A program made the position numbers and the translations under genes. DNA of 56,381 bases from Thermoflexaceae bacterium (GTDB lineage: Bacteria; Bacillota; Clostridia; Lachnospirales; Lachnospiraceae): positions 1 through 56,381 of the forward strand of contig JAQXXN010000006.1 of assembly GCA_029226085.1 (NCBI GenBank). The letters run 5' to 3'. The notes beneath the pieces are model-generated. The model had not been told where the DNA came from and made no database searches. It was given only the letters and a program-made list of their open reading frames with translations. Below, piece after piece: positions 48,941 to 55,175 of the stretch (the stretch's first letter is position 1; the number at the start of each line of letters is the position of its first letter).

Positions 48941-50956
48941 TCAATCCAGTTTTAAAATCCACCCATAGTCATTTTCAAACTCCGTCCACATCACATCAAA
49001 TTCGGATTTGTATTCTTCATATGGCCCATTATAATTTTTCTGAACAAAAATATATCGGATTCCCAAATCCTCCAAATCCTTACGGATATCATAAGACGGA
49101 TAATCATCACTGTTCAGATCTTCCGGATGCCTGTCCGGATCCTGATTGGTCAGGTGATAATAATACTCCTTCAGATAACGCAATTCTTCTCCGAAATACG
49201 GCACAAACGTATCTTCCCGTTCCACAATTTCTGCCACCTTATTGTAAATGGTCTGCATGTCACGGTTTACGTTGCCGCCACCTTCAAGCATTTCCATATT
49301 CTGCTGATACACACCAAATAATTTTCCTGATACATTATCCTCCCAGAACCATTCGTCATGTTCGATGAGTACCTGTTCCTTTCCCGTAAGGAGAATTAGA
49401 AAAAGTGTCATTGCCGAAAGAAGATATATTGTAAGAACTCTTCTTTCATCGCCCTTTGTGCAGGCAGTCTTGCGGAATGCACAGCAAAAAAGAAACAGCC
49501 AGAATAAGAAATGCATCTTATAAAAGTAATAACTTCCTATACTGCCCTGAAGCACACAATACATAATCCAGCCGGAAAAAATGATGGTACACAAAGACAT
49601 CCAAAGTACGACATCATTCTGCTTCTTTTTTATGCAATCAATAATGTAGAGAATCATCGGAAACATGAGAATCAGGAAATTGGAATACGGTTCACGATAT
49701 ATGCTTCCATCCAGTACCATTCCCTGATCTTTTGTGGCAAACTGTACAATCATTCCCTGAAAGATATATCGGTATCCCACAAAGACAACCACAATTGTCA
49801 CAATACTTCCCAATAGAATCTTCAGCCATCTCTTTCTTCCCAGCATTTCCATGTCCAGTTTCCAGACTTCAGACATCTTTTTCTTTCTGCGTCCTGCCTG
49901 AATCCGTAAAACAACCAGCACTGCCAGTACCAGTATGATAATGGCTGCTGCCAAAAGAAGAAGAACCGGTAAGAATTTCCCCCAGTATCTGGCTGCCACA
50001 TAGCTGATACAAAGAGCACCCGGGACCGCCATCCCCAGAATCAGAACCGCCAGTGCCTCAAATGAAACCAGCTTCTTTCTTTTATTAAAAAACAATATAA
50101 AATATATGGCTTCCCCCACAAAAACAACCGGAGCAAACTGTGTATAGGAAAGGCATATGGAAGTATTTGCAAGCATGAGAAGACCAATGCTCATCCAGTC
50201 CAGAAGCTCATCAAAATCCATCTTCTGAATAATCCATAGCAGAAAATTAATCATGAGGATTCCTGCGCCAAGGTATTCAAATCCATATAGCAGATTTAAA
50301 AGAGGGTAGCCAAGGAAATACATTAATGTAAATCCGTATCCTGCAATCAGGGAATATTTTCCGTTAATGAACCGGCGAATCCATACCCAGAACATCGCCC
50401 CCATCATAAACCATAAGAACATGTCAGCTATCATGAAGGCACGATGCCAGTTAAAGAATCCAATAAACGGATCCATGCATTTAATAAAGACCATGTCAAT
50501 GAGGTACATTACATATTTTGCCTGAGTAATCCTTCCCGTCTCCACCAGATTTCTGGCATGATCAAAATGTCTTGATGAGTCATCCGATGCATAAGCAAAC
50601 ACATCAAGATTCATTCCATATCTAATCTTTCCAATTAACAGGGTAATCAGTGCCAGAATACAGAGAATCAGAATATCTCTCCAGTCAATGTAATACTTCT
50701 GCGTCTTCTTTTTTCTGATAATATAAACTGCTGCCAATATGGAAACTACTGCATTGATTCCGGACAATGTATATAAATTAATCCTGATTCCCATAAGATT
50801 CATTATCCCGGCAAAAAATACCCAGCAGCATATCATTATAATTCCGGTTGTACTAAACCATACAGTGCCATTCTGCCGCGCCACGTTTTTCGGGACAAGC
50901 ATCAGCAGTACATACAGTATTAAAATAGTAATCAAAAATATAAAAAACTCTGCCAT
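48941..50956 (-). CDS. Large polytopic membrane protein of unknown function (about 15 TM + about 140-aa soluble C-terminal domain)
   Basis: 671-aa ORF with dense hydrophobic segments throughout residues 1-525. The C-terminal domain is acidic and aromatic (EHDEWFWEDN...DYGWILKLD). I recognised no family motif. Confidence 0.6.
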   Translation of the reverse strand: MAEFFIFLITILILYVLLMLVPKNVARQNGTVWFSTTGIIMICCWVFFAGIMNLMGIRINLYTLSGINAVVSILAAVYIIRKKKTQKYYIDWRDILILCILALITLLIGKIRYGMNLDVFAYASDDSSRHFDHARNLVETGRITQAKYVMYLIDMVFIKCMDPFIGFFNWHRAFMIADMFLWFMMGAMFWVWIRRFINGKYSLIAGYGFTLMYFLGYPLLNLLYGFEYLGAGILMINFLLWIIQKMDFDELLDWMSIGLLMLANTSICLSYTQFAPVVFVGEAIYFILFFNKRKKLVSFEALAVLILGMAVPGALCISYVAARYWGKFLPVLLLLAAAIIILVLAVLVVLRIQAGRRKKKMSEVWKLDMEMLGRKRWLKILLGSIVTIVVVFVGYRYIFQGMIVQFATKDQGMVLDGSIYREPYSNFLILMFPMILYIIDCIKKKQNDVVLWMSLCTIIFSGWIMYCVLQGSIGSYYFYKMHFLFWLFLFCCAFRKTACTKGDERRVLTIYLLSAMTLFLILLTGKEQVLIEHDEWFWEDNVSGKLFGVYQQNMEMLEGGGNVNRDMQTIYNKVAEIVEREDTFVPYFGEELRYLKEYYYHLTNQDPDRHPEDLNSDDYPSYDIRKDLEDLGIRYIFVQKNYNGPYEEYKSEFDVMWTEFENDYGWILKLD

Positions 50957-51212: not shown

Positions 51213-51467
51213 CTACTTTCCTAAAATCTCATTAATTTTCTTTCTTGCTTTGTCTACTTTGTCAATGAGAATATGTTCTTCCTTACAAGCAGCTTTTAAA
51301 ATGTTAAGAATCATGTTAAGTTTTTCTGTTTCTGCCGAACCTCCATCCTCCGTCTCAACATCCACCGCATTGTCAAGTCCTAAGGTCGTAACCAGTCTGC
51401 CGCTTGAATATACCACACTGTTCTTCGTATCAATGTTCACGCAGTTTCCAACAACCACAATACACAT
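51213..51467 (-). pseudogene. Possible remnant of a mannose-1-phosphate guanylyltransferase-type gene
   Basis: 84-aa ORF. Residues NIDTKNSVVYSSGRLVTTLGLDNAVDVETEDG resemble the ManC/CpsB segment (DTKN...LVAxIGVxDLVIVETxDA). The rest is unrelated, and the nucleotidyltransferase N-terminus is absent. Confidence 0.3.
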
Positions 51468-51580: not shown

Positions 51581-52018
51581 TTACTCCTCTTTTTCTTTTT
51601 GCTTGTAAAAATCATAAATGTTTACAAATGGCAAAACTAATTTTCCACTGGTGAACACCAATGATGAAATACTTTCTACCTTTGCACGTCCCACAGAGAA
51701 CAAAGCACTTGCACCATTAATCATAACCAACGAGGTAAATTTCTCTTCATCAACGCTAATCGGCGAAGAAAACGCACCCTCCAGAATCATATCAATTGTA
51801 CATACATTTTTTCCATCTCTTTCAAGTTCTACCAAAATCTTCAGCAATACTTTTCCAATTCTTGTCTGTTCTTCCTTACTAAGCTCTGATATAATAATAT
51901 CCATTCCAAATTTTCTTGTAAGATCATCTGTCAATGATGAAATACTATTTTGAACCTCCAGCTTCAAAACGGAAGTTCCCAAAAAATTAAAGTTCGGAAC
52001 AATGCAATTAAAATTCAT
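51581..52018 (-). CDS. SecB-like chaperone (third gene of a TAC-like operon)
   Basis: 145 aa. By-eye alignment to E. coli SecB: [28 protein letters not shown] / [41 protein letters not shown] / [27 protein letters not shown] / PQLNLAPVNFDALF. The start overlaps the antitoxin stop (TAATG). Confidence 0.65.
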   Translation of the reverse strand: [145 protein letters not shown]

Positions 52019-52416
52019 TATGCTATTACCTCCGTATTAAGCAACGCAACTGCCTCCAATTCTTTTGACAAATCACTCTTTCTGCCAAATGATGTATGAA
52101 TCACTTTGTATTCATCATTTACAAAATGTTTTTTTTCATATATATAGGGTTCAAAACCCAATCCAAGGTTATCACATATCTCTTTGAGTGTTACTATTGT
52201 AAAATTATATTCACCACTTTCCCACTTAGAAACCATTCCTTGGGACACATTCATCATTCTGGCAAATTCTTTCTGATTCATTCCAAGTTCGTTGCGTTTC
52301 ATCTCTATTTTTGCAGAAATCTTCGCCAATTCCTTAATACTGTTTATCTCTGAGTCAGATAGTCCCTCAGCTAACCAATTAGTAGTTTTCGCATTTTTAA
52401 TCTTATCCTTAAGCAT
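52018..52416 (-). CDS. XRE-family HTH antitoxin (HigA-like) with about 45-aa C-terminal extension
   Basis: HTH MNQKEFARMMNVSQGMVSKWESGEYNFTIVTLKEI. Start at ATG 52416, 6 nt after GGGGAG; the track ORF starts at an upstream TTG inside the SD. Confidence 0.7.
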   Translation of the reverse strand: MLKDKIKNAKTTNWLAEGLSDSEINSIKELAKISAKIEMKRNELGMNQKEFARMMNVSQGMVSKWESGEYNFTIVTLKEICDNLGLGFEPYIYEKKHFVNDEYKVIHTSFGRKSDLSKELEAVALLNTEVIA

Positions 52417-52437
52417 TACAAACTCCCCTTCCAATCA

Positions 52438-52821
52438 CTAAATATCGAGCATCTTTAATCTCTTTTGAGCCAATTCTATATTTCTTGTATAATCTTTTTT
52501 AGATTTTTCTTTAAATGCAGCTAAGAGTAGTATTCCTCCTTCATCCAAATAAATATACAGTACTCTTGGATTTAATTTACTCTTTGGATATCTAATGCTA
52601 TATAATTTAGGATTAATATTTGTTAATTGTTCAAAATTATTAAGTTTAATTGCTTCCTCCCCATACTCCTCAAGTTTTTCCAAAGAAACTATCAACCATT
52701 TCTGATAACGTGGAAATGGTGGTGTTACACTGAATTTTTCCTTAGTCATACTCAAAAATTCTTTGCGGAAGCAATCAACTTCATACACATTGGAGAACAT
52801 ATCATTCTGTACAATGTCCAA
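52438..52821 (-). CDS. Gp49/HigB-like (RelE-fold) toxin
   Basis: C-terminal KLYSIRYPKSKLNPRVLYIYLDEGGILLLAAFKEKSKKDYTRNIELAQKRL matches the phage Gp49/HigB pattern (LxELR...RVLYxx...IVLLxxFxKKxxKTPxxEIxxA). The start is uncertain. I prefer TTG 52821, 6 nt after GGTGG, because the ATG at 52848 lies inside the predicted -10 box. ATG 52800 is an alternative. Confidence 0.6.
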   Translation of the reverse strand: MDIVQNDMFSNVYEVDCFRKEFLSMTKEKFSVTPPFPRYQKWLIVSLEKLEEYGEEAIKLNNFEQLTNINPKLYSIRYPKSKLNPRVLYIYLDEGGILLLAAFKEKSKKDYTRNIELAQKRLKMLDI

Positions 52822-52846
52822 GTACGACCACCACCTTCGTATTAAC

Positions 52847-52875
52847 ATTATATTACTTATAAGTAATATTTACAA
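52847..52875 (-). promoter_or_regulatory. Promoter of the TAC-like operon with embedded perfect 14-bp palindrome (candidate operator)
   Basis: Minus strand: TTGTAA (52875-52870), a 17-nt spacer, then TATAAT (52852-52847). The spacer contains TTACTTATAAGTAA (52853-52866), which is its own reverse complement. Confidence 0.5.
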
Positions 52876-52914
52876 CTTGTTTTTTGCATTTCTTGTGAAA
52901 TTCCTATTGACCTT

Positions 52915-53073
52915 CTATTTAACATCAAAATAAGCAATAATGCCCTCTCCGGTAAAATAGAACTTAATTTTATCCTGCATATCCCGGATTAATGCATTAT
53001 ATGTGTCCAAAGCATACTCCGGAATTCCCTCAAGCATTGAAAAGACACTACCCTTGTACTCTCTTACGCTCAT
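52915..53073 (-). CDS. Orphan 52-aa ORF with strong SD, function unknown
   Basis: My own translation gives MSVREYKGSVFSMLEGIPEYALDTYNALIRDMQDKIKFYFTGEGIIAYFDVK. GGGGAGG lies 7 nt upstream of ATG 53073. The ORF is below the track length cut-off. Confidence 0.25.
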   Translation of the reverse strand: MSVREYKGSVFSMLEGIPEYALDTYNALIRDMQDKIKFYFTGEGIIAYFDVK

Positions 53074-53200
53074 ACGCATACCTCCCCGGCAGGAGTTATT
53101 GTATATACATACCGCACAATCATCTCCTGCCCTTATTTAATTAAATTTGAAATAAAAGCAGGAATATAAGATAGAAAAATTGCAACGCAGTTTTCTATCA

Positions 53201-53234
53201 AATAAGAAAATCGGTGGTCTTCGTGACCACCGAT
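53201..53234 (-). terminator. Rho-independent terminator of the transglutaminase/cell-wall-binding gene
   Basis: Minus strand: ATCGGTGGTC-ACGAA-GACCACCGAT followed by TTTCTTATTT. Confidence 0.65.
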
Positions 53235-53330: not shown

Positions 53331-55130
53331 TTATGCAGCTACACTAAAGTCAATCTGACCATTTCTAAAATACCACCAGCCGTACTCATTTTGTGCCCAT
53401 CCGGTATAATTCCAGTCAATTGTACCGTTGTTAAAATACCACCAGCCATATTCATTACATGCCATTCCCGTATATGTCCAGTCAATCGTACCATTCCTGT
53501 AATACCACCAGCCATACTCATTACATGCCATTCCCGTGTATGTCCAGTCAATCGTACCATTCCTGTAATACCACCAGCCATACTCATTATATGCCATTCC
53601 TGTGTATGTCCAGTCAATCGTACCATTCCTGTAATACCACCAGCCATATTCATTATATGCCATGCCCGTATACGTCCAGTCGATTGTACCATTTCTGAAA
53701 TACCACCAGCCATATTCATTGTATGCCATGCCCGTATAGCTAAAGTCCAACTGACCATTTCTGAAATACCACCAGCCATACTCATTTTGTGCCATTCCAG
53801 TAAATGTAAAATCTATTTTTCCGTTTCTTACATACCACCAGCCTTCTTCATTCATTGCCATCCCGACATAAGTCGTATCAATCATGCCATTTCTGTAATA
53901 ATGCCAGATTCCATCTTCATCCTTGCATAAGCCATTAACTGCTTCTGAAGTACTTTCCGCATTTACTACGATATATTTCTGTTCATTATAATCTACAACC
54001 GCCGGTATTACCGCACCAGCCTCTTCAATTTCCACAGCCTTAACATAACAATCAGCAAGTGCGGCATTATTATTTACTATAAAATAACAGTACCCGTCTT
54101 TACTAAAGTATGCCGGATTATATGCCGTATATACAGCAATGGATGAATCATACTTCATCTCAGGCAGATATCCATCCCAAAGTGATTCCGGATTATGTGA
54201 GGTAGTCGAATCCCTAAAGGTAGTATCACTTTTATTGTAATACTTATATATCACATATCCCTGATCATCCCACGTAACATCAACATTATACCAGTATCCA
54301 TGTATTTTAACAATATTCCATGCATGGGAAATACTGGTTACTTCAGCTGTCTCAATCCCTGATGCATTTAAAAGCATCTGGAATACTGCCGCATAGCCGG
54401 CACACACCGTTGTTCCTTCACATACCATGCTGTATGACGACTGGTCATATGTGCTATATCCATACTCTGTATTCTTTGCAACTAAATCATGTGCCAGTTT
54501 TACTTTTGCTTCCGGTTTTTCTGCAGCCTGAACCTGTGTTAGCCAGTTATCAATAATTGCTGAATAGGAATCCGTAATCTTTTTCCTTGCATCCCCGTCT
54601 TTAAATTCATCATATAAACGAATTCCGACATAATATCCGCTTGATTCACTGCCATAAAATACTCTGTTGGATAAAAAGTAATACTGCGGATTAGACAGTT
54701 TAAACATATACATAAAATTCGCTATATCGCTGCTGGTTAAGCCGTTCATATTAATTGATGCACTTATTGACTCACAGTCTGTCGTGGATACTACCGACAG
54801 AATACAGGCTGTCTCCAACTGATCCCATGTATTTTTCAGAGAATCTGATAACTGTTCATAATAATAGCTACTGGAGAATTTCGTCCAATACTCCACATCC
54901 ACATTCGAATATTTTCTTGGGAGCCCTTCGCCCGCTTCAATCAAAATTGTATTATCCAGATCCTCTTCCTTAAACTCCTCAATTAAAAGCGGTTTAAGGC
55001 CACACTTCTTCGCTTCATCATCCTCCGTCATATCTTCCGCCCACACATTTGTAACATTGCAGACAAGCAGACAGCAAACTAGCAGGAATCCACCGGATAA
55101 CATTTTCATCTTGCTCACAATTTTTTGCAT
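53331..55130 (-). CDS. Secreted transglutaminase-like cysteine protease-fold protein with 9 C-terminal cell-wall-binding (CW_binding_1/choline-binding-type) repeats
   Basis: Signal peptide MQKIVSKMKMLSGGFLLVCCLLVCNVTNVWA, Cys-His-Asp core CAGYAAVFQML...SHAWNIV...YNVDVTWDD, then repeats of the form YTGMAYNEYGWWYYRNGTIDWT. Confidence 0.8.
   Translation of the reverse strand: MQKIVSKMKMLSGGFLLVCCLLVCNVTNVWAEDMTEDDEAKKCGLKPLLIEEFKEEDLDNTILIEAGEGLPRKYSNVDVEYWTKFSSSYYYEQLSDSLKNTWDQLETACILSVVSTTDCESISASINMNGLTSSDIANFMYMFKLSNPQYYFLSNRVFYGSESSGYYVGIRLYDEFKDGDARKKITDSYSAIIDNWLTQVQAAEKPEAKVKLAHDLVAKNTEYGYSTYDQSSYSMVCEGTTVCAGYAAVFQMLLNASGIETAEVTSISHAWNIVKIHGYWYNVDVTWDDQGYVIYKYYNKSDTTFRDSTTSHNPESLWDGYLPEMKYDSSIAVYTAYNPAYFSKDGYCYFIVNNNAALADCYVKAVEIEEAGAVIPAVVDYNEQKYIVVNAESTSEAVNGLCKDEDGIWHYYRNGMIDTTYVGMAMNEEGWWYVRNGKIDFTFTGMAQNEYGWWYFRNGQLDFSYTGMAYNEYGWWYFRNGTIDWTYTGMAYNEYGWWYYRNGTIDWTYTGMAYNEYGWWYYRNGTIDWTYTGMACNEYGWWYYRNGTIDWTYTGMACNEYGWWYFNNGTIDWNYTGWAQNEYGWWYFRNGQIDFSVAA
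53334..53930. repeat. Nine tandem 66-bp coding repeats (22-aa GWWY repeats), central copies near-identical
   Basis: 66-bp periodicity is visible directly, e.g. the units beginning at about 53459, 53525 and 53591. This periodicity also produces the artefactual repeat ORFs 53339-53785 and 53391-53930 in other frames. Confidence 0.85.
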
Positions 55131-55175
55131 TTTGCATCCATCCTTTCGTAAAATATATGACACCTTATGACTGCA

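Follow-up and report, generated by a model that had tools for sequence, protein, structure and literature searches.

A probable HigBA-type toxin–antitoxin operon with a divergent SecB-like chaperone in a cell-wall polysaccharide locus of a gut Lachnospiraceae bacterium

INTRODUCTION

TACs (toxin–antitoxin–chaperone systems) were described in 2011, and a HigBA toxin–antitoxin pair joined to a SecB chaperone is their paradigm architecture. They are the best-understood TA (toxin–antitoxin) pairs under the control of a dedicated chaperone, and TACs of Escherichia coli have recently been shown to sense phage structural proteins. To our knowledge, all experimental TAC work so far has been carried out in mycobacteria and Proteobacteria. 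In the present study, we analysed a three-gene locus in a 56,381-nt stretch of DNA from Thermoflexaceae bacterium, a member of the Lachnospiraceae (GenBank assembly GCA_029226085.1, contig JAQXXN010000006.1, positions 1–56,381; hereafter the window, with all positions numbered from its first letter). The locus encodes a Gp49/HigB-type toxin, a HigA-type antitoxin with a C-terminal tail and a 145-residue protein with a predicted SecB fold, and we put the probability that it is a tripartite type II TAC operon of the HigBA–SecB type, working by the TAC mechanism, at approximately 0.8.

In every TAC tested experimentally, addiction to the chaperone is conferred by a tail of the antitoxin (PMC5105189; bioRxiv 10.1101/2024.02.24.581848), and these ChAD (chaperone-addiction) elements are extensions that vary in sequence and carry short stretches of aromatic and basic residues (PMC5105189). 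In export, the chaperone of the Mycobacterium tuberculosis system, Rv1957, can stand in for E. coli SecB (PMC5105189). The catalogue of Sala et al. comprised 49 TAC and 11 AC (antitoxin–chaperone) systems in seven phyla, including one in the firmicute Caldicellulosiruptor saccharolyticus of the class Clostridia, in 2012, and a SecB homologue has been noted in a Clostridium difficile phage (PMC3581621). An earlier reading of the window from its letters alone (the original prediction) had proposed a TAC-like operon at this locus and implied that its clostridial setting was novel. Our literature searches found no experimentally characterised clostridial TAC. The C. saccharolyticus TAC predicted in 2012 (PMC3581621) makes the setting itself less novel than was implied.

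RESULTS

Three tightly packed genes behind one promoter

The three ORFs (open reading frames) together occupy positions 51581–52821 of the minus strand. The toxin gene (52438–52821) starts with TTG and codes for a 127-residue protein of the Gp49/HigB type, a putative ribosome-dependent mRNA endonuclease of RelE fold. It is followed by the gene for a 132-residue HigA-type XRE/HTH_3 antitoxin with a C-terminal extension (52018–52416) and by that for the 145-residue chaperone with the predicted SecB fold (51581–52018). A gap of 21 nt, which contains the antitoxin SD (Shine–Dalgarno) sequence GGAAGGGGAG, separates the first two genes; the TAA stop codon of the antitoxin and the ATG of the chaperone overlap as TAATG with 1 nt in common, and the chaperone SD, GGAGG, is encoded within the final antitoxin codons. 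The ORF boundaries, the overlap, the SD in the gap and the peptide strings quoted in the original prediction were all present in the window.

A single promoter ahead of the three genes, as had been proposed, was found by a consensus scan. It is of the sigma-70 type (52847–52875, minus strand; 10/12 matches), with a −35 box TTGTAA at 52875–52870, a 17-nt spacer and a −10 box TATAAT at 52852–52847, and it is conserved in relatives. A repeat search detected a perfect 20-bp palindrome, ATATTACTTA/TAAGTAATAT, at 52850–52869 (10+10 nt, 100% complementary, 0-nt loop), which occupies the promoter spacer and overlaps the −10 box; it is conserved in L001, L006 and L009 (labels of this form denote related loci), none of which differs from it at more than one position. 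Promoter palindromes are bound by HigA and HigBA complexes (PMC11980606), and the palindrome described here is a candidate operator through which the HTH antitoxin may autoregulate the operon.

The toxin SD, GAAGGTGGTGG (52828–52838, minus strand), was read from the sequence ahead of the TTG codon. In this region, GGTGGTGGTC is unchanged across the four loci, and the whole block of promoter, palindrome and SD is near-invariant in the window, L001, L006 and L009; the DNA just upstream of it in the window is unrelated. The TTG start, the SD and the 127-residue length of the toxin are also kept in relatives. A longer toxin ORF with an ATG start reaching 52848 was considered and rejected, since it overlaps the −10 box and the relatives use the conserved TTG. 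From the one promoter and the tight packing, we infer that the three genes are co-transcribed and translationally coupled.

The third gene encodes a divergent SecB-like protein

Searched on its own, the 145-residue protein had no match in Pfam at E values up to 1, and it aligned over residues 20–144 with the NCBIfam SecB model NF004392 at only 14.1 bits (E=0.029; cut-off 143). PDB chain searches with the protein alone or with an eight-sequence profile found no SecB. Seven close relatives were present among 5.8 billion proteins, and an exhaustive profile search extended the family to 534 representative clusters (E up to 0.001; clusters at 50% identity). A 130-sequence profile of this family matched SecB chains only in PDB, weakly (E=0.33), and 42 of the 130 members individually matched the Pfam SecB family PF02556 (best E=4e-7). 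Most family members escape Pfam, and the family is unnamed in public sources, the sole named case being labelled hypothetical.

An AlphaFold (AF2) monomer model built from the 130-sequence alignment had a pLDDT (predicted local distance difference test score) of 93.8 and a pTM (predicted template modelling score) of 0.84, and its four antiparallel strands are accompanied by a helix of 31 residues and a second, short one at the C-terminus. When this model was compared with PDB using Foldseek, the top 19 matches were all either SecB (1qyn, 1fx3, 1ozb and 5jtl) or Rv1957 with a ChAD peptide (5mtw), with E values from 7e-7 to 3e-5 and TM (template modelling) scores of 0.61–0.80; the next matches below them were the streptococcal proteins of unknown function 2o2a and 2hng. 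An earlier model from eight sequences (pLDDT 66.7) gave the same Foldseek ranking. By its predicted fold and family linkage, the protein is thus a divergent SecB-like branch, and we have filed it as SecB-like on these grounds rather than as a PF02556 member or SecB equivalog, because the curated cut-offs are not reached. The SecB homology put forward in the original prediction is therefore upheld by the fold match and by the 42 relatives, although it is undetectable from the single sequence.

The gene order recurs in relatives

Sampling from the chaperone side, without presupposing a TA pair, covered L001–L009 (66–76% identity, with L005 at 41%), L010–L013 (~30%; Oscillospiraceae, Clostridia and Eubacteriales metagenome-assembled genomes) and L015–L021 (23–35%). 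In all 12 independent chaperone-side neighbourhoods, a toxin-like ORF was followed by a tailed HTH antitoxin and then by the SecB-like gene, so the expected synteny of the third gene with TA pairs was found throughout. In the sampled triplets, the HTH_3 gene encoded 120–140 residues and the preceding ORF ~122–135 residues alignable with the window toxin, and the antitoxin stop and chaperone start overlapped by 1 nt in nine of 13 extracted triplets. The 41% relative, L005, adjoins a phage-type integrase, and the neighbours of the relatives are often those of prophages or defence islands: tape-measure protein, holin, endolysin, integrases, the S subunit of type I RM (restriction–modification) systems, GmrSD/HNH, Fic, Macro and YobI-ATPase proteins. 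One contig (GCA_044432865.1, JAWXUF010000010.1) carries the triplet twice, ~13 kb apart (L020 and L021; 284–5712 and 13264–18692). Each copy is followed by a Macro-domain protein, genes for HNH/GmrSD, Fic and the S subunit of a type I RM system are found in the same region, and the pair has the appearance of a module that was duplicated within a defence island.

When sampling started from the antitoxin, 160 loci were obtained from metagenomes and IMG/VR, 142 of them with enough downstream DNA. A SecB-like gene directly followed the antitoxin in 116 of the 142 (metagenomic, 64/69; viral, 52/73). In none of the 35 non-redundant chaperone-linked antitoxin clusters was the tail shorter than 33 residues; a seeming tail of 188 residues is an artefact of ORF calling. 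Tails of 26 residues or fewer occurred in three clusters, which were without a third gene.

Values of dN/dS were calculated against L001 and L006, and, as dS was saturated in several comparisons, only defined values are quoted: 0.08–0.10 for the toxin, ~0.10 for the whole antitoxin and 0.09 for the chaperone. Values of ~0.1 indicate that all three genes are under purifying selection and hence maintained, and, together with the recurrence of the arrangement in every relative examined, they argue that it is more than chance.

The antitoxin tail is variable but ends in a conserved alanine

The HTH_3 DNA-binding domain of the antitoxin comprises residues 37–88 (52153–52308, minus strand; PF01381, E=1.6e-13). 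Beyond it lies the tail EPYIYEKKHFVNDEYKVIHTSFGRKSDLSKELEAVALLNTEVIA (residues 89–132; 52021–52152, minus strand), a candidate ChAD element ending in ...VIA, so that the predicted XRE-HTH antitoxin with approximately 45 extra C-terminal residues was recovered with ~44. An antitoxin profile aligned over residues 6–87 with residues 5–89 of the 97-residue Streptococcus pneumoniae HigA (6af3_B; E=1.3e-9), leaving residues 89–132 almost wholly outside the region covered by that solved structure. The first 25 residues of the tail include five aromatic and seven basic ones. Among relatives, the tails differ in sequence and many have an aromatic segment [DE]Y.[VI][VI].W[DN], which corresponds to DEYKVIHTSF in the window and is a candidate aromatic anchor for the chaperone. 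Both the variability and the aromatic segment fit the published description of ChADs (PMC5105189). With a dN/dS of 0.31–0.43, the tail is also the fastest-evolving part, which is the behaviour to be expected of a ChAD.

Alanine was the final or penultimate residue of the antitoxin in 34 of the 35 chaperone-linked clusters (...IA, ...AA, ...VA, ...AG or ...AS) and in none of the 14 other clusters; alanine makes up only 6% of tail residues overall. In the window, this signature lies in the final antitoxin codons (52021–52032), and at the equivalent positions in L022–L181 the 34 clusters that have it show a hydrophobic residue plus alanine, optionally with a further glycine or serine. The possibility that the terminal ...IA is a mere by-product of the downstream SD and TAATG was rejected: the alanine persists at gene gaps from −8 to +25 nt and is thus not just an RBS (ribosome-binding site) footprint. 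By analogy with the ClpX degron of CmdA, the hydrophobic-Ala end may act as an ssrA-like degron or as an anchor for the chaperone.

The toxin belongs to the family of HigB1

Against Pfam PF05973 (Gp49/HigB; gathering score 23.9), the toxin scored 32.1 bits (E=1.2e-7), and it also matched phrog_2523 (E=8.5e-12), which confirmed its predicted type. A nine-sequence toxin profile found S. pneumoniae HigB (6af3_A) in PDB over almost its full length, weakly (E=0.08), and M. tuberculosis HigB1 (7nbu and 7awk) was among its few other matches, also weak (E ~0.5). PF05973 is the family that includes HigB1 (PMC11980606), so the reservation in the original prediction that the toxin family might be unlike the mycobacterial one was not borne out.

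Functionally important residues of HigB1 (PMC9098466) were mapped on to the window toxin through the profile alignment. HigB1 Arg77 and Phe93 correspond to Arg86 and Phe103, both invariant in the toxin subfamily; Arg68 corresponds to Arg76, an arginine in eight of the nine sequences, and Lys99 to Lys109 of the window toxin. The codon of Glu105, a residue considered in the Discussion, lies at 52507–52509, in the subfamily motif F-x-E-K/S. A dN/dS of ~0.09 argues that the toxin is functional. In L009 (3191–3469; uncultured Lachnospiraceae MGBC120314, the nearest reference metagenome-assembled genome), the toxin ORF ends after 92 residues and the antitoxin and chaperone are intact; the short ORF could reflect either a frameshift, giving an AC-like state, or an assembly error.

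Third genes of other types

A phage-borne group of antitoxins has tails of 43–52 residues ending in ...[LF]KEM (L133, L135, L140, L141, L144, L145, L149, L154, L155 and L175). In most of the ...[LF]KEM loci, the next gene belongs to a family of ~70–88-residue ORFs (alignment A7; Y, N, F, P, V and L residues are found at invariant positions) that is not SecB-like; its start codon lies between −4 and +10 nt relative to the end of the antitoxin gene, and in many loci a large recombinase-like ORF follows. In L156–L163 and L170, which belong to the same group, the ORF was not found at a 60-residue threshold. The family had no match in Pfam or PHROG, and the idea that it is a truncated SecB was rejected, as hhalign gave a probability of 0.25% and no similarity. 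It may be an alternative, non-SecB third component. In L136, L176 and L177, a long-tailed antitoxin is joined to a different overlapping ORF of 135–136 residues that the HMM (hidden Markov model) of the window family does not detect. The L136 ORF starts 1 nt before the antitoxin stop and matches the Pfam SecB family at E=8e-5, below the gathering score. Two or more lineages of SecB have therefore been recruited by this antitoxin lineage.

The module resides in a cell-wall polysaccharide locus

A conserved cassette running from the promoter through the chaperone gene was delimited by blastn against related loci at 51592–52876 (minus strand). Window 52876–51592 aligned at 72–74% identity with L001 3138–4428, L006 3140–4427 and L009 3138–4446, the last extending to window 51572; the flanks of L006 are non-homologous to the window. 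The nearest reference genome is that of an uncultured Lachnospiraceae from mouse gut, assembled from a metagenome, whose chaperone is 66% identical. L001–L004 and L009 have the cassette flanked by an intact manC upstream and, on the other side, by a gene for a 643-residue multi-pass membrane protein, which is followed by PGM/PMM, and an intact manC-type gene is found upstream of the cassette in L006 as well. The downstream genes of the window match this order, with a 671-residue membrane protein and then a PGM/PMM 73% identical to its counterpart. The membrane protein (48941–50956, minus strand; L001:4471–6402) has no Pfam match and is conserved beside PGM/PMM at 643–671 residues.

The manC-like fragment noticed in the original prediction is real: a 3′ remnant of manC corresponding to ManC residues 289–356 lies downstream of the cassette at 51270–51458 on the minus strand (tblastn, 57% identity, E=4e-14; PF22640, E=3.4e-7). 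Approximately 68 final manC codons survive there, compared with the intact upstream gene at L001:2041–3114, and the position of the fragment indicates that, within the polysaccharide locus, either the order was rearranged locally or the cassette was inserted independently. Since cassette and flank are equally diverged (72–74% at the nucleotide level and 73% for PGM/PMM), the module is a long-standing resident of a variable cell-wall polysaccharide locus in related Lachnospiraceae. The acquisition that the original prediction read from this setting is thus only partly supported; more distant relatives do lie in prophages and defence islands. The module is locally rearranged in its position in the window and mobile over larger evolutionary distances.

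Upstream of the module, a terminator-like hairpin (53210–53234, minus strand) closes the neighbouring gene and separates it from the module's promoter. That gene (53331–55163, minus strand) encodes a 610-residue protein that combines a transglutaminase-like core with nine cell-wall repeats of the choline-binding type, and its repeat DNA yields long spurious ORFs in other frames (53339–53785 and 53391–53930). Directly upstream of the cassette promoter is an orphan 54-residue ORF (52915–53079, minus strand) with a strong SD, GGGGAGG; it has no Pfam match and is absent from that position in related loci. No terminator-like site was found 3′ of the chaperone gene in the window, and in L001 the membrane-protein gene starts 12 nt past the chaperone stop, so the TAC promoter may read through into the polysaccharide genes.

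DISCUSSION

As a TAC, for which there are mechanistic precedents (PMC5105189; PMC6377645; bioRxiv 10.1101/2024.02.24.581848), the module would work as follows. The SecB-like protein, presumably as a tetramer, would capture the antitoxin tail while the coupled genes are being translated and keep the unstable antitoxin folded and safe from proteolysis or aggregation, so that the toxin is neutralised. The antitoxin, alone or with the toxin, would repress the operon through the 20-bp promoter palindrome. If the chaperone became scarce or were titrated away by unfolded clients, stress or a phage structural protein, the antitoxin would be lost, a step at which the hydrophobic-Ala end could serve as an ssrA-like degron, and the freed toxin would cleave ribosome-bound mRNA and cause growth arrest. 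The module would probably serve in abortive phage defence, in keeping the variable cell-wall polysaccharide locus stable, or in both.

Several observations weigh against a TAC of this kind. Taken alone, the window chaperone fails every curated SecB model in Pfam and NCBIfam, and an hhalign comparison of the family profile with one E. coli SecB sequence gave E=0.01 and a probability of 4%, too weak to count alone. No model in PADLOC (2023) matches the toxin or the chaperone. The tail holds eight acidic residues, which SecB-binding motifs usually disfavour, and no sequence similarity to the mycobacterial ChAD was detected in it. The 11 remaining long-tailed antitoxin clusters have another gene downstream, and, since long tails thus also occur in relatives with a different third gene, tail length alone is no proof of SecB binding. 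Finally, the position of Lys95, an essential residue of HigB1, is taken in the alignment by Glu105, a glutamate found throughout the toxin subfamily, with Lys106 next to it. With a glutamate at this position, the catalytic mechanism may differ from that of HigB1, and the alignment suggests that the active site is arranged in a variant way for a Gp49 toxin. Poor conservation that extends to the catalytic site has been noted for RelE-like toxins (PMC9098466).

The acidic character of the tail and the equally long tails followed by an unrelated ~70-residue ORF or another gene would also suit an ordinary two-component HigBA system. Its co-transcribed SecB-fold protein would be an accessory, such as a sensor or an adaptor with other clients, unneeded for antitoxin stability, and the tail would serve oligomerisation or wrapping of the toxin. 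We consider this improbable, because the SecB-like gene is tied to tailed antitoxins in 35/35 clusters with stop/start overlaps typical of translational coupling, because the C-terminal motif of the antitoxin tracks the type of third gene, and because the tail confers addiction in all TACs tested by experiment (PMC5105189). A general export chaperone of the solitary SecB type, working with SecA and adjoining the TA pair by chance, is hardly credible for the third gene. The SecB fold, the ability of Rv1957 to replace E. coli SecB in export (PMC5105189) and the sporadic SecB-like genes of Firmicutes (PMC3581621) speak for it, but all 12 chaperone-side neighbourhoods are TA-linked, many of them on prophages or defence islands, the chaperone start overlaps the antitoxin stop, and the protein is very divergent from housekeeping SecB.

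Could the module instead be domesticated or decayed, with a catalytically inactive toxin and with the antitoxin and chaperone retained as an AC-like regulator pair in the polysaccharide locus? The glutamate at the essential Lys95 position, the gene remnants around the module (the manC fragment and orphan ORFs) and the 92-residue toxin ORF of L009 are compatible with this, and toxin-less AC systems are known (PMC3581621). We nevertheless find it highly improbable. The full-length toxin ORF is intact in the window and in L001–L008, with a dN/dS of 0.08–0.10, the equivalents of HigB1 Arg68, Arg77, Phe93 and Lys99 are present, and Glu105 is invariant subfamily-wide, prophage and defence-island copies included, which speaks for an active site peculiar to the family and against decay.

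Returning to the interpretation as a TAC, the diversity of third genes raises a further idea, which we find doubtful and offer only tentatively: chaperone addiction may be an exchangeable plug-in in this HigA lineage. The antitoxin core has at least three kinds of third gene beside it, namely the SecB-like family, a second SecB lineage nearer to PF02556 and the unrelated ~70-residue protein, for which no homologues are known, and the C-terminus of the antitoxin changes with the partner (hydrophobic-Ala(-Gly/Ser) compared with ...[LF]KEM). If this idea were true, the ~70-residue protein would be an addiction partner of a new type outside the SecB family, the hydrophobic-Ala end would work as a degron or anchor particular to this lineage and shielded by the SecB-like chaperone, and gut Clostridia and their phages would use the variants as interchangeable phage sensors.

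The TAC type itself is already known; what is new here is the large gut-clostridial and phage chaperone subfamily, the C-terminal alanine signature and the invariant glutamate of the toxin. Across gut Clostridia, among them Lachnospiraceae and Oscillospiraceae, and on their phages, a large SecB-like subfamily would form TACs of the HigBA type, providing an annotation rule for hundreds of 'hypothetical' genes. The module would also offer a Gram-positive model in which no SecB export role confounds experiments, and a short 44-residue tail whose candidate aromatic anchor and conserved terminal alanine are testable as chaperone-binding and degron elements.

Comparison with known systems

The chaperone-less HigBA systems (S. 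pneumoniae HigBA, 6af3; phage N15 gp49–gp48) resemble the window in being toxin-first, with a Gp49-type toxin and an HTH antitoxin with an N-terminal extension, but, unlike the window, they are without the ~44-residue tail and without a third gene. Housekeeping SecB (E. coli and Haemophilus influenzae; PF02556) shares with the predicted structure of the window chaperone the four-stranded sheet, the long helix and the short C-terminal helix (TM 0.72–0.80 to 1qyn), and its motifs are in register with those of the window protein: EGxFS/GGIFS, LFSVGR/LFPYAR and LVLPFVN/LNLAPVN. The window chaperone is, however, only 15–16% identical to housekeeping SecB, is TA-linked and belongs to a host without an outer membrane.

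The antiphage systems HigBAC of E. coli NT1F31 and CmdTAC (Mets et al. 2024; Vassallo et al. 2024) are, like the window module, tripartite combinations of a TA pair and a SecB-like chaperone. In these systems, aromatic residues of the ChAD drive recognition, and the ...IA, ...AA and ...VA ends of the window-type antitoxins recall the Ala-Ala degron for ClpX at the C-terminus of CmdA. The ChAD of E. coli HigA has ~97 residues with four spaced aromatics, whereas the window tail has 44 residues. HigBAC, CmdTAC and some relatives of the window module lie in prophages and defence islands, whereas the window copy is in a cell-wall polysaccharide locus.

The M. tuberculosis TAC, HigB1 (Rv1955)–HigA1 (Rv1956)–Rv1957, has the same order of toxin, antitoxin and chaperone in one operon. 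The two toxins belong to the same Pfam family (Gp49, PF05973), and in both antitoxins an XRE-HTH domain is extended at the C-terminus by ~45 residues, many of them aromatic or basic. The SecB fold of Rv1957 is matched by the model of the window chaperone (Foldseek to 5mtw, E=1.3e-6, TM 0.61–0.68), although the two proteins are only 12–15% identical and the window chaperone, unlike many TAC chaperones, escapes PF02556. The window system further differs in the glutamate at the HigB1 Lys95 position and in the conserved hydrophobic-Ala motif with which its antitoxin ends, and its host is a monoderm member of the gut Clostridia, whereas M. tuberculosis is a mycobacterium with an outer membrane.

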